From Candidatus Moraniibacteriota bacterium (GTDB lineage: Bacteria; Patescibacteriota; Minisyncoccia; Moranbacterales; UBA1568), in assembly GCA_030648835.1 (NCBI GenBank), contig JAUSGT010000002.1, positions 437,458 through 501,457 on the forward strand: a stretch of DNA of 64,000 nucleotides, in the 5' to 3' direction. Numbering within the stretch: position 1 is the first letter of the stretch; the number at the start of each line of letters is the position of its first letter. Below are positions 5,273 through 60,502 of the stretch, piece by piece. Under the pieces are notes generated by a model. The model saw nothing but the letters and a program-made list of their open reading frames with translations. It searched no databases and had not been told where the DNA came from. The position numbers and the translations under genes were made by a program.

Positions 5273-5380
5273 TGAGTTTCAAAAAATGGCACAAAAGAAT
5301 CTACAAGTGGTGGGTAATCATATCTATTTTTGTTGTGGTGTCCATGGTAGGGTTTTTGGTAGCCCCGTTCTTTCTTTATT
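5273..5380 (+). CDS. Possible small membrane peptide of 35 aa
   Basis: ATG at 5273 encodes MSFKKWHKRIYKWWVIISIFVVVSMVGFLVAPFFLY, a single hydrophobic helix. It is below the ORF-track size cutoff and upstream of ftsB-like. Confidence 0.2.
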
Positions 5381-14633: not shown

Positions 14634-14637
14634 TTTT

Positions 14638-15675: not shown

Positions 15676-15728
15676 ACATTCTGATATTCTGCAGAATGTC
15701 AGAATGTTTGGTAAGTGCGTGAGACAAA

Positions 15729-17111
15729 GTGAAACATATGGTTGAGAAAAAATTCGAATTTATCGCAGACAGGAATTCCGGTATCGAGGGCAGCATATAT
15801 GGTCTTTCGATGTGTTTGGAGGTTATCTGGCAGAGTAATTTGCGTAACAGCGTGAAGTTTCCGTTTTATGCTCAGATAATCGATGATAAGAAACAGCAGT
15901 GTACGGAGTGGATTGATGCGGAAGCGTATAGGGTCAATGCTTTCAACTTTCTTCGCTATTCTGAGAAGAACGGGACAGACTATCTGAAAAGCGTCAGTAA
16001 GCAAGTAACCGAAGAAACTGCTGATTTTTTTACTTTATCGGCCACACTCCTGCCAACGCTCAGGAAACTTTCTGATTTCGATCTGGCCGAAGCCTACGGC
16101 ATATTTATGAACCGTTACAATGAGATATACGGATTGGGTGCTCTGACGTACGTTTACGAGCATGATCTGTCGGAACACTTATCCCAATCTTTTGGTAAGC
16201 GCGGTAAAAACGCCACAGCCTTTTTGAGTCAGATATTGAAAACGGATTACAAGAGCTTCGTCTTTGAGAGTGATGAGCTTTTACTTGCTATAAAGAGTGA
16301 AAAAAAGGCTATAGTAAAGCAAAAATTGATTAATAGCTATTTGAAGAGTTTTTATTTTATGAGAGCGACGTATTCCTCTGCTCCCATACTTGACTCCGAA
16401 GGAGTGTTACGAATGGCTGCCGAGAGAGAGGTGCAGGAAAAATTTGAAAAAGAGAAGAACCAAAAGCCGATCGAGCTTACAGTAGAAGAAAAAGTACTTG
16501 TCTCGATACTTCAGGAAACGGAAATAATCCGCGATCAGAGAAAAAAAGCCAATCTCATCGGAATGTATATGATGTTTCGCTTTCTCGACGAGCTGTGCAA
16601 GCGGTCAGGTATTTCTTCTGAAATAGCGAGGCGGATGTTTTGGTACGAATTCATAGATGGACTGTTTGATACAGAGCGACTGCTTGCTATTCTGAAAAAG
16701 CGTACGCAAGTCAGTATCGTTTTCGATGGATCAAATACGTATTATTTAGAATATGCCGCGATACGACCCCGTCAAATCAGGAAAAATGTCACGCAATTCA
16801 AAGGAACGCCGGCTTCCTCGGGAAAAGTATCGGCCAAAGTGCGAATTGTTCTTGGTTCGAATGATTTCGAGAAATTCAAGAGGGGCGAAGTCCTCGTGAC
16901 TCAGATGACTCGGCCGGCATTTTTGCCGCTTATGAAAATAGCTGCAGCTATCGTGACGGATGAAGGCGGGCTGACATGCCACGCAGCGATTATCGCGCGG
17001 GAGTTGCATATCCCGTGTATCGTCGGTACCAAAATCGCTACGCAAGTATTGAAAGATGGTGATCTCGTTGAAGTGGACGCGGAAAAGGGATTTGTGAGGA
17101 TTCTGCAGTAA
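15729..17111 (+). CDS. P3: paralog with a divergent N-terminal domain and the C-terminal phosphohistidine swivel domain
   Basis: C-terminal GGLTCHAAIIARELHIPCIVGTKIATQVLKDGDLVEVDAEKG. The track start at 15729 is GTG; the ATG at 15738 is more likely. Confidence 0.7.
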   Translation: MKHMVEKKFEFIADRNSGIEGSIYGLSMCLEVIWQSNLRNSVKFPFYAQIIDDKKQQCTEWIDAEAYRVNAFNFLRYSEKNGTDYLKSVSKQVTEETADFFTLSATLLPTLRKLSDFDLAEAYGIFMNRYNEIYGLGALTYVYEHDLSEHLSQSFGKRGKNATAFLSQILKTDYKSFVFESDELLLAIKSEKKAIVKQKLINSYLKSFYFMRATYSSAPILDSEGVLRMAAEREVQEKFEKEKNQKPIELTVEEKVLVSILQETEIIRDQRKKANLIGMYMMFRFLDELCKRSGISSEIARRMFWYEFIDGLFDTERLLAILKKRTQVSIVFDGSNTYYLEYAAIRPRQIRKNVTQFKGTPASSGKVSAKVRIVLGSNDFEKFKRGEVLVTQMTRPAFLPLMKIAAAIVTDEGGLTCHAAIIARELHIPCIVGTKIATQVLKDGDLVEVDAEKGFVRILQ

Positions 17112-17145
17112 TTTTGGTGTTTGAGGTAGGACTAAAAAAGATAAA

Positions 17146-17173
17146 GGGGGCATCGCGCGAATGCCTCCTTTTT
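17146..17173. terminator. Bidirectional hairpin terminator between convergent P3 and the LMW-PTP gene
   Basis: GGGGGCAT-CGCGCGA-ATGCCTCC hairpin flanked by an A-run and a T-run. Confidence 0.55.
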
Positions 17174-17197
17174 ATTTACCGATTGTGGTTGTTTTTC

Positions 17198-17662
17198 TCA
17201 GAGCCCCTCGAGCGCTTTGGGTAGAGCCTGTTTGATTATTGAGGCACACGCGCCGTAGGCTTCGTGTCCTCCTCCAATCGGGTCCGGTATCCCGTCGTTT
17301 TCACCATTCAGGATTACGATGCGGTTGATCGGCGCTCCTTCATTGATCAGAGCTCGCCTGACATGATGATCCACGACGATGATTCGATCGTAGCTTGAGA
17401 GATCAAATTTTGATACATGTCGCGGAGTGTGGCTGTCGAGGTCGAGGCCTGATTCTCTCGCTATCGCAATGCTGTGTCTGTTCGCGTTGGTGAATAGATT
17501 TACCCCAGGGAACAAACCGTGTCCGGGCAAAAGCTCGTCAAGTATGCCGCAACTTTCGACGATGGCATCAATACCGCGCTCGGCAAGCGCCTGTTGTGTG
17601 AAAACCATCATAAGCGGACTGCGGGCCATATTGCCCATGCATACGCACAAGACTCTCTTCAT
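17198..17662 (-). CDS. Low-molecular-weight protein tyrosine phosphatase / arsenate-reductase fold (LMW-PTP)
   Basis: P-loop CVCMGNMARSP (CX5R) at the N-terminus and a downstream DP motif (IPDPIGG). Confidence 0.8.
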   Translation of the reverse strand: MKRVLCVCMGNMARSPLMMVFTQQALAERGIDAIVESCGILDELLPGHGLFPGVNLFTNANRHSIAIARESGLDLDSHTPRHVSKFDLSSYDRIIVVDHHVRRALINEGAPINRIVILNGENDGIPDPIGGGHEAYGACASIIKQALPKALEGL

Positions 17663-17820
17663 TGGAGACCTCTTTGGGGAAAGAACGAAAAAATAGTATA
17701 GCCTGATATGATGATTTTGTCTAGTCCAATAGATGAGTGTACAATGAAAGAAATTGTGGTATTCGTATAAGTAAGAACCTCACATAGCAGGTAAAAGAAC
17801 AATTAACATACTCGAAGGAT

Positions 17821-18441
17821 ATGGACGAAAAAATTCTTAAGTCAATGAATCATATGAAAGTAGATACTGAACTTTTTGATAAAATTTTCATGAAGGTGAA
17901 ACCCCTGCTTCGTTCCGGGAGACCGGGAGATTATGCACATATCAAGAGCGTGTATCGGACGCTCGTTCGTCTCTGCGAAAAAGAAGACTATCCAATAAAT
18001 CCGCGCATCCTCGTTCCTGCCGGAATCCTGCATGACTGTGGTTTCGGTTTTCTCAAGAAGGAACATATGTATTATTTTACCGGGCAGAAAAAAGTGACTG
18101 CGATGAAAGAAGTGATCGGCGGCCTGACACTTGCCTATATTCCGGTGTGCCTTCAAGAATTCCAATTCTCCGATCAAGAAATAGAAGGCATAAAATATAT
18201 CGTGACATATTCCGATGAAAGCGTGCTTCCTATGGAAAATCCATCGCTTGAACTTCAGATTCTCCATGATCTCAATCTGTATGACCGTTTTCTGCCACAT
18301 CGGCTGAAGACCCTGAATACTCTTTATTCCGATCCCGTGAAAAGAAAGGCAGTTCTCGAAGATTCTTTGAGGTACATTATCTTGTCCACTTTCAAGAAAA
18401 AAGCGGAAAAACTGATGAAGAAGATAACGGAAAAATTTTGA
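17821..18441 (+). CDS. HD-domain metal-dependent phosphohydrolase
   Basis: H...HD...D pattern: AHIKSV, GILHDCG and LHDLNLYD. Confidence 0.55.
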   Translation: MDEKILKSMNHMKVDTELFDKIFMKVKPLLRSGRPGDYAHIKSVYRTLVRLCEKEDYPINPRILVPAGILHDCGFGFLKKEHMYYFTGQKKVTAMKEVIGGLTLAYIPVCLQEFQFSDQEIEGIKYIVTYSDESVLPMENPSLELQILHDLNLYDRFLPHRLKTLNTLYSDPVKRKAVLEDSLRYIILSTFKKKAEKLMKKITEKF

Positions 18442-18455
18442 CTTTTTGAAGTAAT

Positions 18456-20012
18456 ATGAATCTGAGACAAGTTTTGGACAGAAAGGGGATGTACATATAT
18501 CCCTGGTACATATCGGATATTGCGGTTACCAAAGATATCGCTTCCATCGCCCCGACCAATGTAAAGAAGGTTTTTGTCAGTATCAAAGACAACCTTTTGA
18601 CCATGTATTATGATACTGATGCTGTCGACAAGATTGCCATATACTTTTTGGATAAAATTCTTGTAAACGATATATTTTTTGATGAGGTTATCAAAAATAT
18701 TTATCACTGTGCCGATGATTTGCTTTCTTTTTGCAGAGAAAGCGCGGAGAAAAAAGTTGAAAAAATGTCAGATGAGGAGTTGCTGAGTATTTACCGGACG
18801 TATACGGAAAAATTACGCACTCTAAGGATATGGGGCTGGGTGCCTCCGATTCTGGACGGTATGACCGACCCGTTCTTGAGCCAGCATCTGCTTACGCGAT
18901 TCGGTGAATTTATGGTGACAAAAGGACTCTCTGATAAGGTGAGCGAGTATTATTCGACACTCAGTTCCAGCGAGAGAGAAAGCGAGGTACAAGGAGAAGA
19001 GATAGCTCGTTTGACACTGGCACAAAGTATTGTGGATAGCAGCCAGAGCGAAGAAATCATCCAGTGTATCAAGAATACCGATGAGGGTGCTTTACAGGAG
19101 AAATTTACATCGTTCTATGCACTTCTGGAAAAGCATACGCAAGCATTCGGCGCTCTCACCTATTCTTATAGTGGACCGGCGATGACCATCGCGTATCTGC
19201 TCAAGGCATTGGCCGATGATTTCGAACGAGGAGATATAAGGGGACAGAGAAAGAAAATTCAAGATCACTTCCGGAATATCAAAGAGGAAAAGAGAAAGAT
19301 TATCGAGGCGGTCGATTTGTCGGCAGATTTACAAAGGGAATTCCGAGTGTCGGCAGAACTGATGTATATCAAGGATTGGCGCAAGGGAGCCTATCAGAAA
19401 TCGTATCTCCTGATGGATGTTATTTTGCAAGAGTTAGCCAAGCGTTTGGATATATCTCTGAAAGAGATCAAGTTTCTTGTGTTTGACGAAGTGCGGGAAG
19501 CACTGACCGGAGGAAAGGGAACATACTATAAGGCTCTGCTTGAAGAGCGTCTGAAACACTGCTGCTATAGCGTGGAAAATGGTATTATTGTTGTTTCACA
19601 GGGTAAAGCTTGTGAAGTGTTGGAGGAAAAAATAAAGAAAGAAAGTGTGAGTATGGAACCGACGAAGATGCCAATAGGGGATATCCGCGAGATAAAAGGA
19701 TCTGTCGCGTACAGCGGGTATGCCAAGGGTATTGTGAAGATTGTGCTGACCGTAGAGGATACTGACAAGGTCAATGAAGGTGATATTCTCGTTTCTTCGG
19801 CGACCAATCCCGATCTGATGCTGGCGATGAGGAAGGCCGCCGCCTTCGTGACCGATACGGGAGGCATTATGTCGCATGCTTCTATCGTCTCGCGAGAAAT
19901 GAAAAAACCCTGCGTCGTTGGGACGAAAATAGCCACACATATATTCAAGGATGGTGATCTTGTGGAGGTAGATGCCAAGAACGGTGTAGTAAGGATTCTC
20001 AAAAAGAAATGA
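18456..20012 (+). CDS. P4: paralog with a divergent N-terminal domain and the C-terminal phosphohistidine swivel domain
   Basis: C-terminal GGIMSHASIVSREMKKPCVVGTKIATHIFKDGDLVEVDAKNG. Confidence 0.7.
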   Translation: MNLRQVLDRKGMYIYPWYISDIAVTKDIASIAPTNVKKVFVSIKDNLLTMYYDTDAVDKIAIYFLDKILVNDIFFDEVIKNIYHCADDLLSFCRESAEKKVEKMSDEELLSIYRTYTEKLRTLRIWGWVPPILDGMTDPFLSQHLLTRFGEFMVTKGLSDKVSEYYSTLSSSERESEVQGEEIARLTLAQSIVDSSQSEEIIQCIKNTDEGALQEKFTSFYALLEKHTQAFGALTYSYSGPAMTIAYLLKALADDFERGDIRGQRKKIQDHFRNIKEEKRKIIEAVDLSADLQREFRVSAELMYIKDWRKGAYQKSYLLMDVILQELAKRLDISLKEIKFLVFDEVREALTGGKGTYYKALLEERLKHCCYSVENGIIVVSQGKACEVLEEKIKKESVSMEPTKMPIGDIREIKGSVAYSGYAKGIVKIVLTVEDTDKVNEGDILVSSATNPDLMLAMRKAAAFVTDTGGIMSHASIVSREMKKPCVVGTKIATHIFKDGDLVEVDAKNGVVRILKKK

Positions 20013-21367
20013 ATATAAGTGATTTTCAAAATCGTAAATGGGTGGTGCTGGGAGCCAATTGTTACCCGCTGTATGCCGATTCTTTCGCGGAGCCGGTGAG
20101 CCAGGGGTACTACCGGACATATGGGATCCCCAATGAGGTGCTGGGGGTTTTCAACAAGGATTTTTTCGAATGGTTGTATGACAACTCACAACTCGTTGCA
20201 TTGTCAGAGAAATTATTGCCAGGTTTGTTGAGCACACCTTGGAATTACTATGATGAATGGCAAAAGAATGCGAAATCCTTTTCTGTTTTTCATGAATCAG
20301 TTATAGAAAAAGATTTTACAGCATTGTCCCATAAAGAGTTGGGTAAATTGGCAAAAGAATACCATCGTATTTTTTGGCTTCAGTTTGCTCCCAGTAATAT
20401 TATTGAGCCGCTTAGCTATTATTTTCAAAGCCGTTTCAAAAAAATGCTTACCCTCAAAGGTACGAAGGAAAATGAAATAGATCAGCTAATGGATTACTAT
20501 GGCCGATCCAAGTATCCAAACTATATTAAAGAATGTCTGGCTGAATACCGTTTGGCAAAAAATGAAGACGTCATACAAGCAGTTTTGAAGAAATATGCAT
20601 ACCTGGCGAACGATTACTTGGGGCCAAAAGTATTAACCAAAGCGTACCTGGATGAACTGTTAAAACAAGAAACGCATGAGCCGCATGTTGGCGCAGTCCC
20701 TGCTGTTTCTCCCGAAACGCAGTTGTTGCTAGAAGTTTTTCAGATGGTGGCTACTATCCAGGATGTCAGGAAAGCTTATAGCTTGATGATGATAGCTGGC
20801 GTACACAATTTTGCGATCGAATACGCCAAGCGGCTTAAACTGCCGGATACTCTTATATGGTATGCTCTCTGGAAAGAAATATATGCAGGCGATGTCAATG
20901 AAAAAAAGCTGGAAGAGCGTCGCGAACATAGCGTCATACTCTGGGGGAAAAAAGAAACGGTTGCTTGTGAAGGAATAGAGGCTGAGAAATTGGCAGCAGA
21001 TATCCATACGTTGGTTTTCGGCAGTACCAAAGATGTGAAAAAAGTGAAAGGCATATGTGCTTCTCCGGGAAAAGTCACGGGGCGAGCCGTCGTTGTGATG
21101 CATCCTGATGAATTCCACAAGGTGAAAAAAGGAGACGTGCTTTTTACTATGATGACGCGCCCGGAATATTTACCGGTTATGCAGCTGGCAGCCGCATTTG
21201 TCACTGATGAGGGAGGCATCACGTCGCACGCGGCGATTGTGGCGAGGGAAATGAAAAAACCATGTATCATAGCTACGAAAATAGGCACGAAAGTCGTGAA
21301 AGACGGTGATCTCGTCGAGGTAGACGCGGATAAGGGGATAGTGAGGATATTAGAAAAAAAGAAATAG
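20009..21367 (+). CDS. P5: paralog with a divergent N-terminal domain and the C-terminal phosphohistidine swivel domain
   Basis: C-terminal GGITSHAAIVAREMKKPCIIATKIGTKVVKDGDLVEVDADKG. Its start overlaps the P4 stop (ATGA). Confidence 0.7.
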   Translation: MNISDFQNRKWVVLGANCYPLYADSFAEPVSQGYYRTYGIPNEVLGVFNKDFFEWLYDNSQLVALSEKLLPGLLSTPWNYYDEWQKNAKSFSVFHESVIEKDFTALSHKELGKLAKEYHRIFWLQFAPSNIIEPLSYYFQSRFKKMLTLKGTKENEIDQLMDYYGRSKYPNYIKECLAEYRLAKNEDVIQAVLKKYAYLANDYLGPKVLTKAYLDELLKQETHEPHVGAVPAVSPETQLLLEVFQMVATIQDVRKAYSLMMIAGVHNFAIEYAKRLKLPDTLIWYALWKEIYAGDVNEKKLEERREHSVILWGKKETVACEGIEAEKLAADIHTLVFGSTKDVKKVKGICASPGKVTGRAVVVMHPDEFHKVKKGDVLFTMMTRPEYLPVMQLAAAFVTDEGGITSHAAIVAREMKKPCIIATKIGTKVVKDGDLVEVDADKGIVRILEKKK

Positions 21368-21432
21368 AAAAACTGCCAAAATTGGCAGTAGATAATAAGC
21401 ACGCTTTGCAATTATACACCTTTTTGGTGGTT

Positions 21433-21461
21433 TTGTCAATGTCAGACTTATCCTGTATTAT
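21433..21461 (+). promoter_or_regulatory. Candidate promoter TTGTCA-17-TATTAT upstream of the riboflavin kinase gene
   Basis: TTGTCA at 21433-21438, a 17-nt spacer and TATTAT at 21456-21461. Confidence 0.35.
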
Positions 21462-21520
21462 TGAAGAATCGGATGTAAGTAATACCGAATGCTTACGTCA
21501 AAAGAATATAGGTTAATCGT

Positions 21521-21895
21521 ATGTCAGGAACAAAACAGGTGCCTCTTTTGGTACAAAAAGGAAAAGTGGAGCGCGGAACGAAAATGGCCCGGAAGGTGGG
21601 ATATCCTACGGTGAATATTCACTATGATGATCCGGAAATTCTTACCGGTACGTATGCCGGGAAAGTAACGGTGGACAATACCGAATACCGTGCCGCGATC
21701 TATGTCAATCAAGAGCGGGAAGTATTGGAGGCGCATCTTTTGGATTTTTCGGGGGATTTGTATGGAAAAGAGATCACCGTTGTATTGCTGGAACGGTTGG
21801 TAGAAGCGAAAGAGTTCCGGGGAAGACTGGACGAACAAAGTTTCATTGATTGGGCAGTAAAAGAGGTACAGAAATACTTCAACATAAATTCCTAA
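21521..21895 (+). CDS. Stand-alone riboflavin kinase (flavokinase) domain
   Basis: ARKVGYPTVNIHY...GTYAGKV...YRAAIYV...EAHLLDF..DLYGKEITV matches the RibF C-terminal flavokinase domain. No adenylyltransferase domain is present. Confidence 0.75.
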   Translation: MSGTKQVPLLVQKGKVERGTKMARKVGYPTVNIHYDDPEILTGTYAGKVTVDNTEYRAAIYVNQEREVLEAHLLDFSGDLYGKEITVVLLERLVEAKEFRGRLDEQSFIDWAVKEVQKYFNINS

Positions 21896-21989
21896 TATCT
21901 AATTTCTAATTCCTAATAAAAAAGTAGAAATTATAAAATTAAAGATTTCATTAGATATTAGATATTGGTAATTAGAAATTTTTAAACGT
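21896..21989. promoter_or_regulatory. AT-rich island with reiterated palindromic motifs (AATATCTAAT/ATTAGATATT, TTCTAATT/AATTAGAA) between the riboflavin kinase gene and ribE
   Basis: Several copies of TAGATATT and AATTAGAA in both orientations within 94 nt. The base composition is far more AT-rich than the flanks. Confidence 0.4.
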
Positions 21990-22580
21990 ATGTTTACCGG
22001 CATTGTTCAAAAAATAGCGCCGCTTCTTTCTGCCACTCCCCAAGGGGAGTGTTTGCGGGTGCGGATCAAAAAGCCTCTTGGCTGGAAATTGACTCCGGGG
22101 CAAAGCGTGGCTGTGGATGGGGTGTGTTCCACGGTAGTTTTATGCAAGTCAGATTTTTTCGAAGTGGAGTATATGCAAGAGACGCTTATCAAAACAACAG
22201 TGAAAACATTTAAAAAAAACCAAGTTGTCAATCTCGAGCGATCTCTGACTCTCAAAGATTTTGTAGACGGAGGTTTGGTCCAGGGGCATGTGGATATGCG
22301 TGGCAAGGTAAAGAAGGTAGAAAAAACAGGGGAAATGGCCCTCCTTGAAATAACTCTTCCGGAAGCATTAAAGAAATATATCGCTCCTATCGGGTCTGTC
22401 ACAGTGAATGGTGTCAGTTTGACAGTGGCTCGGGTAAAGAAGGATACTTTCAGTATGGCACTTATCCCATACACGTTGGAACATACCAATCTCGGGCTTT
22501 TGAAAAAGGGTGACATGGTCAATGTAGAAGTGGATATTCTGGCGCGGTACATCGTCAATGCGCGAATAAAGGAAAGATAA
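21990..22580 (+). CDS. ribE: Riboflavin synthase alpha chain
   Basis: MFTGIVQ N-terminus and two lumazine-binding repeats (VAVDGVCSTV and VTVNGVSLTV). Confidence 0.85.
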   Translation: MFTGIVQKIAPLLSATPQGECLRVRIKKPLGWKLTPGQSVAVDGVCSTVVLCKSDFFEVEYMQETLIKTTVKTFKKNQVVNLERSLTLKDFVDGGLVQGHVDMRGKVKKVEKTGEMALLEITLPEALKKYIAPIGSVTVNGVSLTVARVKKDTFSMALIPYTLEHTNLGLLKKGDMVNVEVDILARYIVNARIKER

Positions 22581-22600
22581 TTCAGGTAACTTAGAGAAAT

Positions 22601-23068
22601 ATGCAAGTAAAAAACGCCGCCAAAAGAATAACAAAAAACGCTTCAGCGCTCCAGATCGGTATCGTGGTATCCAACTATTACGCCGATACGATTACCGGAA
22701 AACTTTTGCTTGGAGCAGAGGCTGTTCTGAAAGAATGGAAAGTGTTGCCAAAAAATATTACCGTGGTGCGTGTTCCGGGGTGTTTCGAAATTCCTTATGG
22801 CTGTATCACACTTCTAAAACAAAAAAAGTACGACGCTCTGATTACTTTGGGCTGCATTGTCAAAGGTGAGACGGAACACGATCGCTATATCGCTTCGGCG
22901 GTTTCGCAGGGCATTATGGATCTGACTTTGGCACACGGGGTGCCGATAGCGTTCGGCGTGCTTACCGTCAACAACTTGGCTCAGGCAAAAGCCCGTTCCA
23001 CGGGAAAAAATAACAAAGGAGTGGAAGCTGCTATCGCCGCGTTAGAGGCAACTTTCTTGAAAAAATGA
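22601..23068 (+). CDS. ribH: 6,7-dimethyl-8-ribityllumazine synthase
   Basis: Typical RibH motifs: IGIVVS..., VPGCFEIP, LGCIVKGETEHDRYI and GVLTV. Confidence 0.85.
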   Translation: MQVKNAAKRITKNASALQIGIVVSNYYADTITGKLLLGAEAVLKEWKVLPKNITVVRVPGCFEIPYGCITLLKQKKYDALITLGCIVKGETEHDRYIASAVSQGIMDLTLAHGVPIAFGVLTVNNLAQAKARSTGKNNKGVEAAIAALEATFLKK

Positions 23069-23997
23069 TAATACTGGGTGACTGTATGTTTGAAGAAATT
23101 CATAATAATGAAGCAAGCGAACAAGAAGAAGTAGTTTTGAAGGTGATTATTCAGAGACATGGGCCTAAACTGAGCGCTTCCGGAGAAAAAAACCAGCTGG
23201 CGACTTATTTTGCGGATTCAGTGAAACAAGGGTTTCAGGTAACCGGGATATCTGAGGGAGAGGGATTAGTTCATGTAAATTCAAGTCCTGTTACGAGGGC
23301 AGCAGACACGGCAAAGATTGATATTGCTGAACTTTCTCATACACAGCATCGTTTTAAAGATATGGTTGTAAAGAAAGAGGCACTTGCTGTTTTGTTTCAA
23401 CCGTTGGCCGATGCAGAAGATCCGCGGTTCGCGCGGGATTTGGAGAGGATAGTAAAAATGCAAAAAAAAATTGAGCCGGAAGTGCGCGAAGAAGTCCTTT
23501 TGGAGGAGTCAAATCTTGTGAGTGAAGAAAAAGAGGCGGAAATACGCAATGTCATCGATATGAGAGTTCTTACGGTATTGTTCAATGATGTGCATACTAA
23601 CAAGAAAACATTTGAAACGTCTTATACAGAACTAGCCGACAAGTTTGCGGAGAGATACAAGGGATTTTTGCAGCATATTGGTATGCTGAAGGAAAGAAAG
23701 CGCGAGGGAGGACGTCAGCCAGTAGACGAACCTTACGTGCAGGTAGATATTACCCATTCATTTCCTGTGATGTGTTTTTTGAAAAAATACCTGGTATTTG
23801 CAGATGGAGTGTCTGCAGAAAGCCTTTCCCCAGAAGATTTTTTTGAAAGAACAGGCGGGATTATCCGTGAGTCCGGTTTTATGGAAATGCTTTATATTTC
23901 CAACAGTAACAAGGATTTGAAAGAGGAAAAGATGGCCATAGCTATCCGCGGGTCTTTTGGTAAAGGGCAAGAATTTTCAGGGGAAGTTTCTTTTTAA
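23065..23997 (+). CDS. Hypothetical protein, possibly a histidine-phosphatase (PGAM/SixA-like) fold
   Basis: VIIQRHGPK near the N-terminus resembles the catalytic RHG motif. A later His lies in ITHSFPV. The assignment is weak. Confidence 0.35.
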   Translation: MIILGDCMFEEIHNNEASEQEEVVLKVIIQRHGPKLSASGEKNQLATYFADSVKQGFQVTGISEGEGLVHVNSSPVTRAADTAKIDIAELSHTQHRFKDMVVKKEALAVLFQPLADAEDPRFARDLERIVKMQKKIEPEVREEVLLEESNLVSEEKEAEIRNVIDMRVLTVLFNDVHTNKKTFETSYTELADKFAERYKGFLQHIGMLKERKREGGRQPVDEPYVQVDITHSFPVMCFLKKYLVFADGVSAESLSPEDFFERTGGIIRESGFMEMLYISNSNKDLKEEKMAIAIRGSFGKGQEFSGEVSF

Positions 23998-24007
23998 ATG
24001 ATTTTTT

Positions 24008-25588
24008 ATGCATGAAAAAATAAATTGGTTTTGGATGCATCGGAGAAATGCCAGTCTGCATCACTTCAGTTTTTTGATGACCGGTATGGCCAAGAGAGGA
24101 TGGTCGCCGGTGGTCGATTTTTGGTTTGATAACCAGGCAGTTGTCGGAGTACCAGGCAAAGGCTGTTATGTTTTTTATGATAAAGACCAGCTGAAAAGCG
24201 GGGTGAAGTATAAGAATATCCAAGACAGTATTGATAGTAATCCTGCCTTTGTAAAGGATTTTCAACGAAGAACGGATGAAATTTTTGGTGCGTTGTTTTT
24301 CAAATGCCTTGATATTGAAACAGACAATCTTTCTCTCCTGAGCGACAAGGAACTCCATAGGCTCTACCTCGGCTTCATAGATGCTATGACTGTTGGTCCG
24401 CTCATAACCGTACAACTTTTCGGTATTGAAGCTTGTTTTGATGAGAATTACCGGATCATACAATTTCTCAGGAAACGTTTGCAGGAGCTTGGCAAAGGAA
24501 AAGAATTTGAAACATATAAAGGTATTCTCTCGGTGAATATCGGAGAGACGGTGGCATTTACGGAAAAGAAAAATTTTTACCAGGTTGCGGCGGAAATGGC
24601 AAAAAATAAAGATATTTACGCGCTTTTTCAGAATGAGTCGTTGCAAGAAATAAGCGAGAAATTGAAAAAGTATCCTCGAGAGAACGCTCTTTTCGAGCGA
24701 CATACCAAGAAGTACGAGTGGGTGAATACCGAATACGTGAGCGGTGGCTGGTCTCGTGAGAAGTGGATTGGTGAATTCAAAACGGCGTTGACAGATGTTC
24801 TATTGCCGGATGAACAATTGAAGATTATTTTGCAGAGTTTTGAAGATCTCAATGCGGAAAGAAAAAAGACCATTGAAGAACTGGCTCCGCCCAAGGATGT
24901 TTTGCATGCTCTCAACTGTCTTTCTGAACTGATAGCGCAAAGAGATTGGACAAAAGGGTATTTTACGAAGGCTCTATTGAGCTACAATGTGCTTCTTGAT
25001 GAGATTGCCAGGAGGATCGGTAAAACACGAGAGGATATTCTGCTCTATTCTTATCATGAAATCGAAGCGTACTTTTTGGACGGAACGATTATTCCACAGG
25101 AAGAAATAGATGATCGGAAGAGCAACGGGTTTGTCATTCTCATCAAGCATGGGAGTTTCGAACTGGTTACCGGAAAAAAGAAAATACAGGAAGTTATTGA
25201 GAGTGAAAAAATTTCAGAACCGTTTGAAAAGGTGGCACATATTACCGAATTTAAGGGGCTGGGAGTTTCGCGGGGATGTATCCGGGGGAAGGTGCGGGTT
25301 TTGGAAGATGCCTCGAAGATTTCAGAGCTTGTAGAAGGAGAGATACTGGTCACCTACATGACGACAATCGAATTCATTCCTGCTTTTCGAAAAGCGGCGG
25401 CGGTAGTAACCGATGAAGGTGGAATGTCGTGTCATGCGGCGATCGTAAGTCGAGAATTCAAATTACCTTGTGTCGTCGGCACAAAAGTAGCGACACGCGT
25501 ATTGGAGACGGGCGATGAAGTCGAGGTAGACGCGGATAATGGAAAAGTAAAAATATTGACTAAACACTCATTTATTCAACAAACTTGA
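24008..25588 (+). CDS. P6: paralog with a divergent N-terminal domain and the C-terminal phosphohistidine swivel domain
   Basis: C-terminal GGMSCHAAIVSREFKLPCVVGTKVATRVLETGDEVEVDADNG. Confidence 0.7.
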   Translation: MHEKINWFWMHRRNASLHHFSFLMTGMAKRGWSPVVDFWFDNQAVVGVPGKGCYVFYDKDQLKSGVKYKNIQDSIDSNPAFVKDFQRRTDEIFGALFFKCLDIETDNLSLLSDKELHRLYLGFIDAMTVGPLITVQLFGIEACFDENYRIIQFLRKRLQELGKGKEFETYKGILSVNIGETVAFTEKKNFYQVAAEMAKNKDIYALFQNESLQEISEKLKKYPRENALFERHTKKYEWVNTEYVSGGWSREKWIGEFKTALTDVLLPDEQLKIILQSFEDLNAERKKTIEELAPPKDVLHALNCLSELIAQRDWTKGYFTKALLSYNVLLDEIARRIGKTREDILLYSYHEIEAYFLDGTIIPQEEIDDRKSNGFVILIKHGSFELVTGKKKIQEVIESEKISEPFEKVAHITEFKGLGVSRGCIRGKVRVLEDASKISELVEGEILVTYMTTIEFIPAFRKAAAVVTDEGGMSCHAAIVSREFKLPCVVGTKVATRVLETGDEVEVDADNGKVKILTKHSFIQQT

Positions 25589-26091: not shown

Positions 26092-27288
26092 ATGCGGATA
26101 GCCGTACAAGCCAGTGATTTGGATAACGCGCGGATCGATGGAACGCGCGTGTATTTGAAAGAGTTGCTGAATCGTTTCGGAAAATTTTCGCCGGAGGCGG
26201 AATTTTTGCTGTATCATCAAAACGAATTCAATCCTGAGCTTGCGCCGTGGACGTTCGCCAATTATCGGATCAAAAAGTGTCCATTTCCTTGGGCGTGGAT
26301 GCAAACACGTTTCGCCTGGGAACTGTACAGACAGAGGCCGGAAAAACTTTTTTTGCCAATCCAGGCGGCTCCGCTTTTCGTTCCGAAGACGATAGAAGTG
26401 ACCGCAACCATTCATGATCTCGCCTTCAAGCGTTATCCGGAAACGTTTCCGAAAAAGCATTTACTGAAACTCAACTTTCTGCTCGATGTCGTTGTCCGGA
26501 GAGCAAACAAACTTATTGCCGTGTCGCAATCAACCAAAGATGATCTTTTGGAATTTTTTCCCAATCTTCCGGAGAATCGCGTGAAAGTCATTTACCATGG
26601 TTTCGACAGCGAGTTTTTCTCTACAAGACTTTCCTCTGATGAACTTTCTGAAAAGCTAAAAAGCTACAAGCTACAAGCTACGAGCTATATACTGTATGTC
26701 GGTGCTCTGCAGCCAAGGAAAAATCTGGTGCGTTTGATCGAGGCTTTCAATATTGTCAAACAAAAGTTAGAGGGTCATTCCGAACGAAGTGAGGAATCTC
26801 GAGTCCAGTATCATCAAACGGGATCCTTCGCTGATGCTCAGGATGACGGGCGAATGAAGCTGGTATTGGCAGGGGAACCGGCTTGGCTGGCAGAGGATAT
26901 CCTCGCTGCGCGGCAAAAAAGCGTTTACAAAGAAGATATTATCATGACAGGACGAGTGACATTCGATGAATTGCGTGTATTGTATCAAGGCGCGCGGTGT
27001 TTTGTCTTTCCTTCGCTCTATGAGGGTTTTGGCCTCCCAATTCTTGAAGCTATGGCTTCCCATATTCCGGTTTTGACAGCGGATAATTCCAGTTTGCGCG
27101 AAGTCGGTGGCGACGCGGCGCTCTACTGTGATGCCGAGAGCGTGGAGGATATAGCCGAAAAAATGAAACGTCTCTCAAGCGATGAGGGGTTGCGTTCGGA
27201 ACTTATCGTGAGAGGGGGAGAACAATTGAAAAAATTTTCCTGGGACAAATGCGCCCGAGAAACGCTGGAGTATATCCAGTTCAAATAG
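26092..27288 (+). CDS. Glycosyltransferase family 4 (GT-B, group 1)
   Basis: EGFGLPILEAMASHIPVLTADNSSLREVGGDAALYCD. It carries an in-frame ~26-aa insertion that coincides with repeat R1. Confidence 0.8.
   Translation: MRIAVQASDLDNARIDGTRVYLKELLNRFGKFSPEAEFLLYHQNEFNPELAPWTFANYRIKKCPFPWAWMQTRFAWELYRQRPEKLFLPIQAAPLFVPKTIEVTATIHDLAFKRYPETFPKKHLLKLNFLLDVVVRRANKLIAVSQSTKDDLLEFFPNLPENRVKVIYHGFDSEFFSTRLSSDELSEKLKSYKLQATSYILYVGALQPRKNLVRLIEAFNIVKQKLEGHSERSEESRVQYHQTGSFADAQDDGRMKLVLAGEPAWLAEDILAARQKSVYKEDIIMTGRVTFDELRVLYQGARCFVFPSLYEGFGLPILEAMASHIPVLTADNSSLREVGGDAALYCDAESVEDIAEKMKRLSSDEGLRSELIVRGGEQLKKFSWDKCARETLEYIQFK
26774..26847 (+). repeat. R1: copy of a ~70-nt imperfect hairpin repeat (GTCATTCCGAAC.GAGTGAGGAATCTCG...CGAGATCCTTCGCT...CTCAGGATGAC), in-frame within the GT4 gene
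   Basis: Near-identical arms to R2 at 57475-57541. The arms are self-complementary with G·U-compatible mismatches. Confidence 0.7.
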
Positions 27289-56426: not shown

Positions 56427-57467
56427 ATGCTGTCAGAAAAAATAATCGGCATTCAAAAAGAAGGTGAGAGAGCACTGTCATCCATCAAAACAATGGCGGA
56501 ATTAGAGATGTGGGAAGTGAAGTATCTTGGCCGAAAAAGCGAACTTTCCGAAATATTGAAGGGGCTGAAGGATCTCGCTTCGGAAGAGAAGCGTGTCGTG
56601 GGTCCGCTCGGCAACGCCGCCAAGGAATCTCTGATGAAGGCCTTTGAGGAGACCAAGGAAACACTTTTTGAAAACAGTATCGATTGGGAGAGAGAGCGTA
56701 TCGATGTGACAGCCCCCGGCACGGCAGTACCTCGTGGGCATTTGCATCCTATTACTCTTGTAGAACAGCAAATTGAAGATATTTTTGTCAGTTTGGGTTT
56801 TACGGTGGTGGATGGTCCGGAAGTGGATAAAGAGTGGTACAACTTTGACGCCTTGAACATCCCCAGAGATCATCCTGCGCGGGATATGCAGGATACTTTT
56901 TGGATTAAGGGTGAAGAAAAAAACAAAGATCGGTACTTGCCCCGTACGCATACATCCAATGTTCAAGTCAGGTATATGGAAGCGCATACACCGCCACTGC
57001 GCATCATTATTCCCGGACGTATTTTTCGCAATGAAGCCACCGACGCTTCCCATGAACACACTTTTCATCAATTCGAATGTCTGATGGTGGACAAAGAAGG
57101 AGTTGTCAGCGTAGCGACATTCAAGCATATCGCGGAAACGTTTTTCAGTCAGTTTTTCGGAAAGAAAGTACGCATCCGTTTGCGACCGAGTTTTTTCCCG
57201 TTTACCGAGCCTTCTTTCGAGTTTGATATCAACTGTATCCTCTGCGACGGCAAGGGCTGTCCGGTGTGCAAACAGGCGGGGTGGTTGGAAATCGGCGGCG
57301 CCGGTATGGTAAACCAAAAAGTGTTCGAAGCAGCCGGGTATCCGCGCGGGAAGTATCAGGGTTTCGCTTGGGGTTTCGGTGTGACGCGTCTGGCAATGAT
57401 GAAATACAAGATTACTGACATCCGCCTTATGATGAGCGGCGATTTGAGATTTATCAGACAGTTTTAG
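56427..57467 (+). CDS. pheS: Phenylalanyl-tRNA synthetase alpha subunit
   Basis: Class II motifs including NIPRDHPARDMQDTFWI and GAGMV. Confidence 0.9.
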   Translation: MLSEKIIGIQKEGERALSSIKTMAELEMWEVKYLGRKSELSEILKGLKDLASEEKRVVGPLGNAAKESLMKAFEETKETLFENSIDWERERIDVTAPGTAVPRGHLHPITLVEQQIEDIFVSLGFTVVDGPEVDKEWYNFDALNIPRDHPARDMQDTFWIKGEEKNKDRYLPRTHTSNVQVRYMEAHTPPLRIIIPGRIFRNEATDASHEHTFHQFECLMVDKEGVVSVATFKHIAETFFSQFFGKKVRIRLRPSFFPFTEPSFEFDINCILCDGKGCPVCKQAGWLEIGGAGMVNQKVFEAAGYPRGKYQGFAWGFGVTRLAMMKYKITDIRLMMSGDLRFIRQF

Positions 57468-57474: not shown

Positions 57475-57541
57475 GTCATTCCGAACAGAGTGAGGAATCT
57501 CGTAAAATTTTGACGAGATCCTTCGCTCCACTCAGGATGAC
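57475..57541 (+). repeat. R2: copy of the ~70-nt imperfect hairpin repeat in the pheS-pheT intergenic region
   Basis: GTCATTCCGAACAGAGTGAGGAATCTCG, loop, CGAGATCCTTCGCTCCACTCAGGATGAC. The arms pair over ~28 positions, including G·U-compatible mismatches. Confidence 0.7.
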
Positions 57542-57551: not shown

Positions 57552-59939
57552 ATGAAATATTCCTACAATTGGCTGAAAGAATTATCCGGGACCAAGAAGT
57601 CGCCACAGCAGTTGGCGGAGCTTTTGATGACGCACGCGTTTGAGGTGGAGAGCATCGAGAAATTTCAACATGGACTGGACGGTGTGGTAGTCGGAAAAGT
57701 TATGACTCTTGTCAAACATCCCAACGCAGACAAATTGAGAGTGGCGGAAATCGAGATAAAGAAAAATGATATCCGTCAGATCGTGTGCGGCGCGCCCAAT
57801 GTGGCCGTCGGACAGAAAGTGGCGGTGGCCTTGCCTGGTGTGAAATTATCTGGGATGGAAATAAAAGCAGTGGAAATTCGCGGAGTGGAGTCGCGCGGTA
57901 TGATCTGTTCGGCGAAAGAATTGAATCTCGGTGATGATCATACCGGTATTCTCGTTCTATCGAGTGATACGCCGATTGGTGTTTCATTCGTAGAATATTT
58001 TGGTCTGGATGACAGTCTTATGGAAGTGAAGATTCTTCCGGATCGCGGATCGGATGCGCTCTCGTATCAAGGTTTAGCTCGTGAAATTGCCGCTCTGGAT
58101 GGAGTTTCTCCACGTTTTTTGAGTGAACGGTCAAAACCGATTAAAGCTTCTTCGTCCAATCGTGCTTCACAGGTAGTGATTGACGACAAGCGGGGGTGTC
58201 TACGGTATGTCGGTATCGCGTTTGAAAATATCGCCGTAGGAGAGTCACCGCTTTGGCTCAAAGTGCGACTGCTTCTTTCCGGTTTGCGTCCTATCAACAA
58301 TATCGTTGACGCGACCAACTACCTGATGCTCCTTACCGGTCAGCCGATGCACGCGTTTGATATGGATCAGTTAACCGGTAGCGTGACGATTCGCCGGGCG
58401 AAGAAAGATGAGCGATTGATGCTTCTCACGGGAGAAACCAAAACTCTTTCTCCGGAAGATCTCGTTATTGCCGATGAAAAAGGGCCAGTAGCGCTGGCCG
58501 GAGTGATGGGTGGAGCTGCTTCCTCCGTGACGGAAAAAACGAAAAATATATTTTTGGAAATCGCCACGTTTGATGCTACCGTGATTCGTCGCACAAAGAC
58601 GCGTTACAACCTCTTGACTGATGCCGGTTATCGTTTCGAGCGAGGCTTGGATCCAAACCTACCCGGAGTAGCGGCGCAGGAGGCAGCCTCTCTTGTCCAT
58701 TCTTTGACTGGTGGAATTATGCTTGGGATGCGTGATATATATCCGAAAGTAGCCAAAGAAGTGAAAATCAAGTTGTCGCTCCTTCGTGTGGAAAATGTTT
58801 TGGGGAGAGAGATCTCTATCGTGGAGGCGGGAAAATATCTTACACTTTTGGGATTGACGGTAAAGAAATCGGCCAATAAAAAAATTCTCGATGTGATCGT
58901 GCCGACGCGTCGTCCGGATCTCTGTGATGAGTGGGATTTGATTGAAGAGATCGGTCGGATGTACGGATACGAAAAAATTGTTTCGGTCGCTCCGCTTCTG
59001 CCACTTCTCCCGACTGACGAAAATATGGAGAAAAATTTTGAACGGCGCGCCAAAGAATATCTTGTGCACAGCGGTTTTGATGAAATAATGACGTACTCGT
59101 TTTATGGAGAGAAGGAAGTGCGAGGGGCATTCCTACCGCTCGTATCTCATTTGGAGCTTGCCAATCCTCTCAGCCCCGATCAGAAATTTTTGCGTATGAC
59201 GCTCTTGCCTCTTTTGCTTCAGAAAGCCAAGGAAAATCTGCGGTCGTTTAATGCTTTTAATTTCTTCGAATGGGGGAGTGTTTTTGTGAAAGGTAAGGCG
59301 GGTGTACCGATTGAATTTAAATCTCTTGGGCTATTGACCATGCTGCAAGAAAAGAATATTAAAGGAGAAGCGTTCTCTCTTATGAAAGGACGAGTGCTGG
59401 CATTTTTTGAATCTTTGCATATCGATCAGGGAAAAATTTCTTGGGGATTGCCAAAGATGTTTCCGGACATTCCGGTTCTGGGTATGCTTCATCCGACGCG
59501 GAGTGCTGTTTTCGCGTATGACGGACAACCTTTTGGCGTTATAGGTGAAATCCATCCGAGAACCTTGAAAGCCTTTGATCTTCCGCCACGCGTTGCCGTA
59601 GCCGGGTTTGTCGCCGAGGAACTCAGGAAACTTCAAAAAAAAGAAATTCTTTTTACTCCGCTTCAAAAATTCCCTTTTGCCGTGCGTGATATTTCTCTTA
59701 CCTTTCCTCGCAAAGTGACCGTAAGCGAAGTTGAGCAGCTGCTACGCGAAGCCGGAGCGCCGCTTTTACAAAAATTCGAACTTTTTGATATTTACGATCA
59801 CGGAGAAGAAAAAAGTCTTGCGTTTCATCTCTTTTTTGGAGCGCCGGATAGGACGCTTGAAAGTCTTGAGATGGATACTGCTTTCGATAGGATAGTGGCT
59901 TTGGCAAAAGAGCGTTTTGAGGCTCGATTAAGGGATTAA
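57552..59939 (+). CDS. pheT: Phenylalanyl-tRNA synthetase beta subunit
   Basis: MKYSYNWLKE N-terminus, then tRNA-binding, B3/B4, B5 and FDX-ACB-like regions. The track ORF begins at 57510; the ATG at 57552 matches the canonical start. Confidence 0.9.
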   Translation: MKYSYNWLKELSGTKKSPQQLAELLMTHAFEVESIEKFQHGLDGVVVGKVMTLVKHPNADKLRVAEIEIKKNDIRQIVCGAPNVAVGQKVAVALPGVKLSGMEIKAVEIRGVESRGMICSAKELNLGDDHTGILVLSSDTPIGVSFVEYFGLDDSLMEVKILPDRGSDALSYQGLAREIAALDGVSPRFLSERSKPIKASSSNRASQVVIDDKRGCLRYVGIAFENIAVGESPLWLKVRLLLSGLRPINNIVDATNYLMLLTGQPMHAFDMDQLTGSVTIRRAKKDERLMLLTGETKTLSPEDLVIADEKGPVALAGVMGGAASSVTEKTKNIFLEIATFDATVIRRTKTRYNLLTDAGYRFERGLDPNLPGVAAQEAASLVHSLTGGIMLGMRDIYPKVAKEVKIKLSLLRVENVLGREISIVEAGKYLTLLGLTVKKSANKKILDVIVPTRRPDLCDEWDLIEEIGRMYGYEKIVSVAPLLPLLPTDENMEKNFERRAKEYLVHSGFDEIMTYSFYGEKEVRGAFLPLVSHLELANPLSPDQKFLRMTLLPLLLQKAKENLRSFNAFNFFEWGSVFVKGKAGVPIEFKSLGLLTMLQEKNIKGEAFSLMKGRVLAFFESLHIDQGKISWGLPKMFPDIPVLGMLHPTRSAVFAYDGQPFGVIGEIHPRTLKAFDLPPRVAVAGFVAEELRKLQKKEILFTPLQKFPFAVRDISLTFPRKVTVSEVEQLLREAGAPLLQKFELFDIYDHGEEKSLAFHLFFGAPDRTLESLEMDTAFDRIVALAKERFEARLRD

Positions 59940-59981
59940 TGGCTAGTGAGTATTGATTTTTGTAGCGAAATGTGCTATAAA

Positions 59982-60048
59982 GTCATTCTGAGTGAAATGA
60001 AGAATCCCGATATATTTCAACGAGACTCTTCGCTGCGCTCGGAGCGAC
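59982..60048 (+). repeat. R3: degenerate copy of the hairpin repeat between pheT and rnpB
   Basis: GTCATTCTGAGTGAAATGAAGAATCCCG...CGAGACTCTTCGCTGCGCTCGGAGCGAC. The blocks are in the same order as R1 and R2 but the arm complementarity is weaker. Confidence 0.5.
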
Positions 60049-60077
60049 ACTGTGTGTCGGTTTCTCGTTCTTTCCCA

Positions 60078-60482
60078 AAACAGATCAGATTGTCGCGCGA
60101 CTGCCTCTTTTGAGAGGCGGAGTGAGGAAAGTCCGGACACTCGCCAATTTTGTCTGCTCTCTGCATTATATGGAGCTATAGGGGCTTTAGTGTTTGGAGC
60201 AGACAAAATTGGCAGCAGGGTAGTGGGTAATTCCCATCTCTCGCCTTTGGCGGGATGAGGTGCGAGCAGTGACGCCAATGTCGAAAGGCAAAGGATTCCT
60301 TCGGGAATAAGTCTGTCGAAAGGCAGAAGTGAAACGGCTAAATCCTTACTTGAGTGCAAGGTCGTGCCCCGAGCAATCGGGGAGAACCGCAAAGATTTTG
60401 TCGGTAACGGCGAAGCAAGAGAAATGACAGTCGCCCTGAGAGAAATCAAAGGGGACAGAATCCGGCTTATACATCTGTTTTG
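60078..60482 (+). ncRNA. rnpB: RNase P RNA (bacterial type A-like)
   Basis: The P4 5' strand GAGGAAAGTCCGGAC and the P4 3' strand GGGACAGAATCCGGCTTAT. P1 pairs AAAACAGAT (60078-60086) with ATCTGTTTT (60472-60480). The P2 strands GCGACTG and CAGTCGC. The length (~400 nt) fits. Confidence 0.85.
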
Positions 60483-60502
60483 GGAAAAGATTGGAAGCAT
60501 CC

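Follow-up and report, generated by a model that had tools for sequence, protein, structure and literature searches.

A hairpin-forming repeat found across bacterial phyla lies in frame within a glycosyltransferase gene of a Candidatus Moranbacteria genome

A hairpin repeat within a GT4 gene

We analysed a 64,000-nt stretch of contig JAUSGT010000002.1 from a Candidatus Moraniibacteriota bacterium, referred to here as the window, and a 74-nt hairpin-forming repeat that lies inside one of its genes, an intact open reading frame (ORF) for a GT4-family glycosyltransferase. The repeat, the first of three copies in the window, consists of two inverted arms around a loop and lies in the reading frame of its host gene:

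26092..27288, + strand: gene for a GT4-family glycosyltransferase, 398 aa, ORF intact (ORF list, Pfam and a database protein match)
26774..26847, + strand: hairpin repeat copy 1, 74 nt, in frame as codons G228-D252 (sequence; covariance model, 67.0 bits)
26774..26801, + strand: left arm of copy 1, 28 nt, GTCATTCCGAACGAAGTGAGGAATCTCG (sequence)
26802..26819, + strand: loop or spacer of copy 1, 18 nt, AGTCCAGTATCATCAAAC, longer than the 11 nt of each intergenic copy
26820..26847, + strand: right arm of copy 1, 28 nt, GGGATCCTTCGCTGATGCTCAGGATGAC (sequence)

The original prediction had described an element of about 70 nt with imperfectly self-complementary arms in this gene and had quoted its translation. 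The sequence is present at 26774-26847, and the in-frame translation, ...KQKLEGHSERSEESRVQYHQTGSFADAQDDGRMKLVLAGE... (in wider context, ...KQKLEGHSERSEESRVQYHQTGSFADAQDDGRMKL...), is identical to the one quoted. The element is free of stop codons in two of the three frames of the + strand, and in its predicted fold arm pairs with arm at -25.1 kcal/mol. Between the left arm and that of an intergenic copy, 26 of 28 positions agree, and the arm conforms to the family consensus given below. A search for the 28-nt left-arm pattern gave two occurrences in the window and none in 100 shuffles, so that the similarity of the arms, for which a statistical check had been proposed, is far above chance and recurrent. 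The right arm of copy 1 has one additional base compared with copy 2, and between SFA and AQDD the reading frame is shifted by this base. The codons next to the element encode glycine on both sides, GGT at the 5' side and GGG at the 3' side.

The host protein (P0001) is 100% identical to a database protein of a Candidatus Moranbacteria metagenome-assembled genome (MAG; NCBI) on a 635,596-bp contig. Its place in GT4 rests on two Pfam domains above their gathering scores, Glycos_transf_1 (PF00534; E = 8.7e-28, 97.4 bits, cut-off 26.4) and Glyco_transf_4 (PF13439; E = 4e-09, 37.1 bits, cut-off 28.5), and on a GT-B fold of two Rossmann domains. The AlphaFold2 model, with alternating strands and helices, has a mean predicted local distance difference test (pLDDT) of 88.6 and a predicted template modelling score (pTM) of 0.86, and its pLDDT is low (51-54) only at residues 231-250. 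The insert is placed in the C-terminal Rossmann-like domain, between helix 209-227 and strand 256-260. The solved GT4 structure 6tvp_A aligns as two blocks that flank the insert, at query residues 134-218 and 264-394, with 45 query residues between them versus 19 in the solved chain, and the motifs YVGALQPRKNL and KLVLAGE, one on each side of the insert, are intact. The low-confidence loop, the split alignment and the intact flanking motifs together indicate that the insert of copy 1 is a surface-loop expansion of the modelled GT4 fold.

Filled and empty alleles of the GT4 gene

To 30 residues at this site in the host protein correspond only four (SMPE, RVPQ, SNPD and the like) in 105 of 111 close GT4 orthologues. 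Four of the other six have the full insert, one (P0005) has the insert minus 13 codons, and one (P0070, 67% identical) has a 13-residue segment at the same loop, encoded by GACCATTC...GTGCTCAGGGTGAC, that looks like a decayed remnant of the element. The short linker thus prevails, which marks the segment as an insertion. Such an alignment had been proposed in the original prediction, and the contrary outcome named there, orthologues with a segment of the same length and no similarity to the repeat, is not what the alignment contains.

At the DNA level, the empty allele of contig L001, whose gene is 81-86% nucleotide-identical, reads AAACAAAGTATGCCCGAAATGAAA at the site, and the filled site of the window reads ...AAGTTAGAGG followed by the 74 nt and GGGCGAATGAAG. 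The filled alleles have the form ...AAAAGTTAGAGG, then the element (GTCAT...ATGAC), then GGGCGAATGAAG. Relative to empty alleles the net gain is 81 nt (27 codons), made up of the 74-nt core and 7 nt, and comparison of the two kinds of site indicates that the insertion replaced ancestral linker codons and did not simply split them. This in-frame gain, falling in the low-confidence AlphaFold2 loop, agrees with the proposal that the element either had colonised a coding region without disruption of the frame or is tolerated as a loop. Filled alleles have since diverged. In L002 and L003 an in-frame internal deletion of 39 nt has removed about half of the element; the full insert of 81 nt and this deletion are both multiples of three and stop-free. 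In L216-L218, which encode protein P0121, 26 codons of the insert are kept at 77-79% identity to the window copy, the same as in the rest of the gene; this insert no longer folds arm against arm and its frame is kept. The 3' flanking codon, GGG in the window copy, is AAG in L004, L005, L216 and L002.

Since the insert is common to several lineages down to about 77% nucleotide identity, and P0070 may have a remnant at the same loop, the segment could be ancestral coding sequence of a GT4 subfamily that was lost in most lineages and resembles the hairpin by coincidence. We consider this effectively refuted. The left arm equals that of an intergenic copy at 26 of 28 nt, the covariance model of the repeat family (R1, described below) matches copy 1 with 67 bits and E = 3.4e-15, with the copy itself in the seed, the short linker is found in 105 of the 111 orthologues, including all of the more distant ones, and the same repeat occurs at hundreds of unrelated intergenic sites.

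The source of the window is a MAG, and repeats are known to give chimeric joins, which raises the question of an assembly or binning artefact. Against such a repeat-induced chimera, the insertion is found at the same codon in independent assemblies from NCBI, Logan (SRR22388066 and SRR22388098), ENA (ERZ4903125 and ERZ27228609) and JGI (3300025308 and 3300009167); these come from different projects and pipelines, and each has lineage-specific substitutions. For the insert-bearing P0121, the assembly collection lists 29 blocks, and 23 contigs from these were read. An artefact is, on these grounds, effectively refuted and very improbable.

A neighbour-joining tree of the GT4 alleles was computed without the insert columns and with 200 bootstraps. 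The insert-bearing alleles were monophyletic in 0 of 200 bootstraps; the empty P0006 was nested among insert-bearers in 194 of 200 and adjoins the insert-bearing P0002, and P0004, which has the insert, is paired with P0010, which lacks it. The sliding identity profile of the alleles is mosaic. All filled alleles have the same flanks, TTAGAGG on one side and RRGCGA on the other, so that the insertion took place a single time. Precise excision as the origin of the empty alleles is ruled out, because empty sites have the ancestral SMPE-type linker and not KLEG..R excision flanks. Given a single insertion, an interleaved tree and an ancestral linker free of an excision scar, the mixture of filled and empty alleles is best explained by recombination between mosaic GT4 genes of different Moranbacteria.

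The same GT4 gene has also received another repeat. About 25 aa upstream of the insert site, P0077 (L212 4001-5182) and P0058 have a hairpin repeat of another kind, likewise in frame, which in P0077 consists of two tandem units of ACTACCCCGCCTACGCCRAGKCTTCGGCGGGCAAGAAA with the peptide ...PAYAKSSAGKKLPRLRRGFGGQE...; we take this repeat to be of a type that occurs in many metagenome proteins.

Two further copies in the window

The R1 covariance model found exactly three copies in the window and nothing else below E = 0.1; because all three copies are in the seed alignment, their scores are partly by construction. Copies 2 and 3 lie between genes on either side of pheT:

57475..57541, + strand: copy 2, 67 nt, arms 57475-57502 and 57514-57541, loop 57503-57513 (fold; covariance model, 67.8 bits)
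56427..57467, + strand: pheS (phenylalanine--tRNA ligase alpha subunit), upstream neighbour of copy 2
57552..59939, + strand: pheT (beta subunit), likely ATG at 57552 (start aligned with L219, L220 and L221)
59965..59981, + strand: conserved block ATGTGCTATAAA, with a -10-like TATAAA and TTGATT 17 nt upstream, abutting copy 3 (comparison by eye)
59982..60048, + strand: copy 3, 67 nt, diverged, arms 59982-60009 and 60021-60048 (repeat scan; covariance model, 54.9 bits)
60077..60485, + strand: RNase P RNA, bacterial class A (Rfam RF00010, 71.9 bits, E = 3.7e-21)

The near-identical arms that the original prediction had placed at 57475-57541 are a real copy; its count was one short, as it had missed the diverged third copy at 59982-60048. 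Copy 2 folds at -30.0 kcal/mol (z = -5.4 against shuffles) and copy 3 at -24.9 kcal/mol (z = -3.8). All three copies in the window are sense-oriented, on the + strand and within transcribed regions, and empty sites were found for all three in related Moranbacteria. With three copies in 64 kb where chance would give 0, these empty sites and a family that reaches at least 14 phyla, the earlier description of a miniature mobile or repeat element is borne out.

At the site of copy 2, the spacer between pheS and pheT is 84 nt in the window versus 3, 4 and 11 nt in the related Moranbacteria contigs L219, L220 and L221. The TTG start at 57510 given for pheT in the ORF list falls within copy 2 and is probably spurious, the alignment of orthologues favouring the ATG at 57552. 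Several Moranbacteria PheS proteins are 8-35 residues above the usual 344-346 aa (P0132, P0144 with 368 aa, P0183 with 380 aa, and others with 352-359 aa); their length could come from more repeats inserted in frame or from read-through into repeats next to the gene.

Copy 3 lies between a promoter-like box, GTGCTATAA(A/T), and the conserved RNase P RNA leader GTCG(G)TTTC, and the RNase P RNA starts 28 nt 3' of it. The block at 59965-59981 is common to the window, L219 and L220, and by eye resembles a promoter-like -10 box; a consensus promoter scan did not flag this block because it ends in A. The site of copy 3 is empty in L220 (about 5350-5380). At the same spot of the rnpB leader, L219 (about 8290-8415) has an unrelated palindrome of about 125 nt, CACCCTGTACCAATT...AATTGGTACAGGGT, and the spot between the promoter-like box and the leader looks like a hot spot for palindromic inserts, which would be transcribed there as the 5' leader of RNase P RNA. 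The RF00010 match, at 71.9 bits, is below the gathering score of 100, so that Rfam run with default settings reports zero RNA genes for the window.

Three other features of the window were recorded. ARAGORN found no tRNA gene in the 64 kb and no relation of the element to tmRNA. At 15675-15708 there is a near-perfect palindrome of 34 nt, AACATTCTGATATTCTGCAGAATGTCAGAATGTT, that is unrelated to the hairpin family (a marginal R1 match of 13 bits, E = 0.42). Directly upstream of the flavin/GT4 cluster, five or six paralogous genes, diverged from one another, form a tandem array at 14374-25588, of which the one tested member (24008-25588) has a C-terminal PEP-utilising-enzyme mobile domain, PF00391; the array and the flavin/GT4 arrangement are also found in the related contigs L001 and L216.

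A family spread across bacterial phyla

We defined the family R1 by a left arm GTCATTCYGARYNNARYGARGAATC and a right arm GAYYCTTCGC(3-6 nt)CTCRGRATGAC, inverted around a variable spacer; the window copies have this form. With a strict two-arm pattern, a collection of species-representative genomes yielded at least 120 stretches in at least 14 phyla. Among the matches listed were Bacteroidota, Ignavibacteriota, Planctomycetota, Verrucomicrobiota, Acidobacteriota, Alpha-, Beta- and Gammaproteobacteria, Myxococcota, Bacillota, Chloroflexota, Armatimonadota, Gemmatimonadota, Cyanobacteriota including Melainabacteria, Hydrogenedentes and Patescibacteria, and also two genome records not labelled as MAGs, Mucilaginibacter sp. 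SG564 and Neglectibacter caecimuris M00184. A metagenome scan with the subtype of the window gave 82 further copies.

The family consensus is T-GTCATTCTGAGCGNAGCGAAGAATCT-(0-35 nt)-AGATCCTTCGCTNCGCTCAGGATGAC-A, and the linked left-arm variant TCCGAACGNAGTGAGGAATC is the type in this window. Elements are 52-82 nt long with arms of 26-28 nt. The 113 family members from which the covariance model was built align with 27 invariant columns, and 97.9% of cells are paired across the 113 copies. In about 72% of the copies, arm positions 6 and 22 have fixed T.G and A.C oppositions, which makes these copies asymmetric; the rest are perfect palindromes. Most stem pairs are invariant, and hence uninformative on structure; the first pair inside the variable spacer covaries (CG 38, UA 24, GC 10, AU 9). 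The flanking base is T at -1 in 99 of 124 copies and A at +1 in 90 of 124, and no direct duplication (target-site duplication) flanks the core in these 124 copies.

Nearly all copies are intergenic, only a few percent being genic. Their orientation relative to flanking genes is unbiased (18 same, 27 opposite), and the median distances to the neighbouring gene's stop (82 nt) and start (118 nt) are uninformative, with little positional bias. The element is rare in viral contigs (six in IMG/VR) and was found in 0 GenBank phages and 0 E. coli genomes and, among plasmids, only in those of Planktothrix; these counts speak against a phage or plasmid as the vector.

In one lineage the core is nested in a larger structure. 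A palindromic shell of about 135 nt surrounds it in L019, L025, L058, L061, L071 (one Planctomycetaceae MAG) and L069, and this Planctomycete shell ends in 16-nt terminal repeats, TCAGTAGTTCCAAGTT, with what looks like a 3-bp target duplication. It seems from this arrangement that a lineage-specific MITE (miniature inverted-repeat transposable element) carries the cross-phylum core as a passenger module.

Searches against known families were negative. At gathering score, Rfam had 0 matches to the window and 0 to 18 loci taken from diverse phyla; at E <= 10, one element matched only eukaryotic miRNA-precursor hairpin noise, and the two intergenic copies of the window matched nothing. These null searches rule out a ribozyme (hammerhead, prompted by CUGA...GAA), an RNA like that of the signal recognition particle (SRP), a riboswitch and an intron. 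Pfam assigned no family to the translated arms. Integron attC sites, dif/Xer sites, a CsrA-binding GGA hairpin, and diversity-generating retroelement (DGR) or retron structures were set aside, as the sequence or anatomy of the element does not fit them. No relevant paper with the arm nucleotides or arm peptides was found in the searchable literature, most subscription journals lying outside its scope, and keyword searches returned only the general literature on MITEs, repetitive extragenic palindromes (REPs) and Rickettsia palindromic elements (RPEs).

In-frame copies in other genes

Copies of the family also occur in frame within other genes. On the metagenome contig L200 (38% GC), a 22-codon copy at 2545-2610 on the - strand, within the ORF 982-2841, lies in the G domain of LepA/EF4, with VIPNEVRNLPGSEDPSLIAQDD set between ...YIYKNN and RGEGYTLNLIDTPGH...; this copy is stop-free and uses a different reading frame of the element than the GT4 copy. 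The RefSeq protein PglX (BREX) of Planktothrix agardhii, WP_254034922.1, has in-frame copies with extra half-arms (AQND...AQND), ...TVILSETKDLSGVVKDNRDSSQAQNDRNNAQND..., and on another Planktothrix plasmid a copy lies, by overlap of annotation, inside the coding sequence of an MmeI-type restriction-modification protein, WP_254032727.1. The Planktothrix agardhii plasmids also have tandem clusters of the element between genes, at 1359-1643, 3001-3077 and 4597-4724 of L214 and at 1279-1439 and 3001-3128 of L215.

A stable hairpin within a coding region could also be left untranslated, either skipped by the ribosome or removed from the mRNA, with the protein unchanged. Programmed bypass inserts, as in T4 gene 60 and the mitochondrial 'byp' elements of Magnusiomyces, are likewise short hairpin-forming inserts in coding sequence whose gene remains functional, and they need not be in frame or stop-free. 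The flanking glycine codons GGT and GGG of the window copy would suit such a mechanism, but the 3' codon is AAG in L004, L005, L216 and L002. The genic copies differ from bypass inserts in that every one examined is a multiple of three and has no stop codon (81 nt in GT4, the 39-nt deletion derivative and the 22 codons of lepA), which is expected only if they are read. Moreover, Rfam gave no intron or ribozyme match, and in L216 the hairpin has decayed and the frame is kept. We therefore regard bypass as very improbable and take the genic copies to be translated.

Relation to known palindromic repeats

RPEs were reportedly described by Ogata et al. in Science in 2000 and in Genome Research in 2002. 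The likeness of the present element to them is one of behaviour: both are palindromic selfish repeats that occur between genes and in frame in conserved genes, adding a peptide at a place that the fold can accommodate, and neither is known to have a linked transposase. According to PMC10969869, RPEs are families restricted to Rickettsia, about 100-150 bp long and very often inserted in ORFs. The element described here is 52-82 nt long (67-74 nt in the window), is genic in only a few percent of cases, is hosted here by Moranbacteria and keeps its arms almost unchanged over at least 14 phyla; host and length set it apart from RPEs, and the match noted is one of behaviour, in-frame insertion.

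REPs, with the bacterial interspersed mosaic elements (BIMEs) and REP doublets (REPINs) that they form, are mobilised by REP-associated tyrosine transposases (RAYTs, or TnpA-REP) of the tyrosine HUH type (PMC3733652, PMC6006769), and occasional in-frame REP copies inside genes are documented (PMC3733652). The present family resembles them in being made of short imperfect palindromes, in inverted dimers that yield a longer hairpin, in the lack of a target-site duplication and in clusters with partial units; its two inverted units in one long imperfect hairpin correspond to a REPIN. It differs from them in the foot of the hairpin, where the GTAG/CGTC tetranucleotide is absent and the ends read T|GTCAT...ATGAC|A, and in range, REP families being species- or genus-specific whereas this hairpin family spans many phyla. 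No RAYT gene was found beside about 200 loci, of which the 120 genome loci covered up to 8 kb, so that a single-copy RAYT elsewhere in the genome is easily missed. Genes for class 3 TnpA-Y1 are flanked by structures with a CnGA foot in Planctomycetes, Acidobacteria and Proteobacteria, with published units CnGAGCCGCGACCGTnAGGGAGCG (PMC6006769). Only the CnGAGC-like motif is common to these structures and the present element (CYGARC at arm positions 7-12), the rest differing from the published Table S1; no class 3 TnpA-Y1 gene was found near the examined loci, and the element does not belong to these structures, the motif being a lead at most.

Bacterial MITEs that fuse in frame with genes include the Coxiella QMITE, ERIC, Correia/NEMIS and the Anabaena MITEs (PMC5896051, PMC10969869). 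The present elements are similarly small and non-autonomous, with inverted termini and hairpins, intergenic and intragenic positions and presence/absence polymorphism. They differ from MITEs in that the core has no target-site duplication, the 3-bp duplication being confined to the Planctomycete outer shell. No parent insertion sequence (IS) with matching terminal repeats was found in the fetched loci. In its behaviour the element matches RPEs, REPs inside genes and MITE-gene fusions, and it fails on features that define REP/RAYT and MITE membership, the GTAG/CGTC foot and the target-site duplication.

Origin and mobility of the insert

We consider it very likely that copy 1 is a non-autonomous hairpin-forming repeat of a REP/MITE-like kind that is present in a loop of the GT4 enzyme as a tolerated in-frame insertion. 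The data above show a repeat that was inserted in frame into a loop, empty sites for all three window copies and a family spread across bacterial phyla. Made up of two inverted, conserved arms of 26-28 nt and a variable spacer, like a REPIN or a very small MITE, one copy entered, in sense orientation, the linker that joins the first helix to the second strand of the C-terminal Rossmann domain of GT4. The gene stayed open because the element is stop-free in two of three frames, and the translated element would form a surface loop of about 27 aa, with little order, to which the enzyme is tolerant. The copy has since evolved as coding sequence, with hairpin decay or in-frame partial deletion in sister lineages, and recombination among mosaic GT4 genes probably reassorted the filled and empty forms.

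Several points weigh against this account. The boundaries of the insertion are fuzzy, about 7 or more unrelated extra bases standing beside the core at each filled site. The checks proposed in the original prediction were all favourable, and the element does fold as a hairpin, but the genic copy is no more stable than shuffles (z = -0.79). Set beside the z values of the intergenic copies (-5.4 and -3.8), this indicates that the genic hairpin is already weakened. Translation of the insert is an inference from the sequence. No mobilising enzyme was found, as no protein family recurs beside 120 genome loci in an all-against-all clustering of ORFs, nor did any fetched locus have the IS-like arrangement of inverted arm pairs 300-4000 nt apart flanking an ORF. 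The conservation of the arms across many phyla is unusual for REP and MITE families, which are normally lineage-specific. Finally, among the three closest alleles (window, L004 and L005) only 1-2 of the 78 nt of the insert differ, against 10-20% of positions in the 60 nt to either side, a near-identity that simple neutral decay does not predict.

Mobilisation itself is a more tentative matter. No linked transposase was found at the 120 genome loci, where the ORF clusters comprise only housekeeping functions (ABC transporters, kinases and aminotransferases), the largest being ABC transporters at 8 loci. The lack of a target-site duplication and of a linked or parent IS, the fixed mismatches in the arms and the clustered partial arms fit REP/REPIN-like handling better than DDE transposition, and the CnGA motif points the same way. 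It is possible, though less likely than not, that a tyrosine HUH enzyme (IS200/RAYT-like) mobilises the element in trans, acting on a folded single strand.

The near-identity of the insert bears on whether copy 1 has been exapted or has a dual function, as a selected mRNA hairpin, a protein-binding DNA site or a useful peptide loop. Of the 1-2 differences among the inserts of the window, L004 and L005, 0-1 are synonymous, against 3-8 synonymous-only codons in each adjacent 20-codon block. At one position the window copy follows the family consensus, GGATGAC, in contrast to the GGACGAC of all other alleles. The recurrence of the insert-bearing P0121 allele in those 29 blocks, and the sense orientation in transcribed regions of all three window copies, would also fit selection. 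On the other hand, the insert of the L216 clade diverges at the rate of its gene (77-79%) and has lost the hairpin, half of the insert is deleted in L002, 105 of 111 orthologues work without it, and orientation is unbiased across the family (18 same versus 27 opposite). In a mosaic gene, moreover, the baseline divergence may be only 8-10%, which leaves the excess conservation at about P = 0.005-0.02 from three sequences. Exaptation is, in our judgement, improbable.

The arms are nearly invariant across at least 14 phyla; this cross-phylum spread stands out together with the local nucleotide conservation of copy 1. A broader reading, which we hold to be unlikely, is that the element is no ordinary selfish repeat tied to one lineage but a module common to most bacterial phyla, its 26-nt arms nearly constant from Patescibacteria to Planctomycetes, Bacillota, Cyanobacteria and Proteobacteria, that is propagated or kept by widely conserved machinery recognising the fixed T.G/A.C mismatches and that has a nucleic-acid role even inside coding sequence. 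If that were true, the near-identity of copy 1 across GT4 alleles diverged by about 15% would reflect a dual-coding constraint or element-specific gene conversion.

Implications

Palindromic selfish DNA that colonises genes in frame is known above all from Rickettsia, and REP and MITE examples are scattered over other bacteria. The GT4 gene is an instance of such colonisation in a bacterium of the Candidate Phyla Radiation (CPR) with a reduced genome. Its filled, empty, decayed and deleted alleles form a small natural experiment on the gain of a protein loop. The family also distorts or inflates protein predictions in MAGs of many phyla, where it appears as the peptides VILSEAKNL, HSERSEES and ILRFAQDD, and its members create false start codons and N-terminal extensions, such as the TTG of pheT. 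A gene whose presence follows the copy number of the element across genomes could reveal a new mobilisation system.

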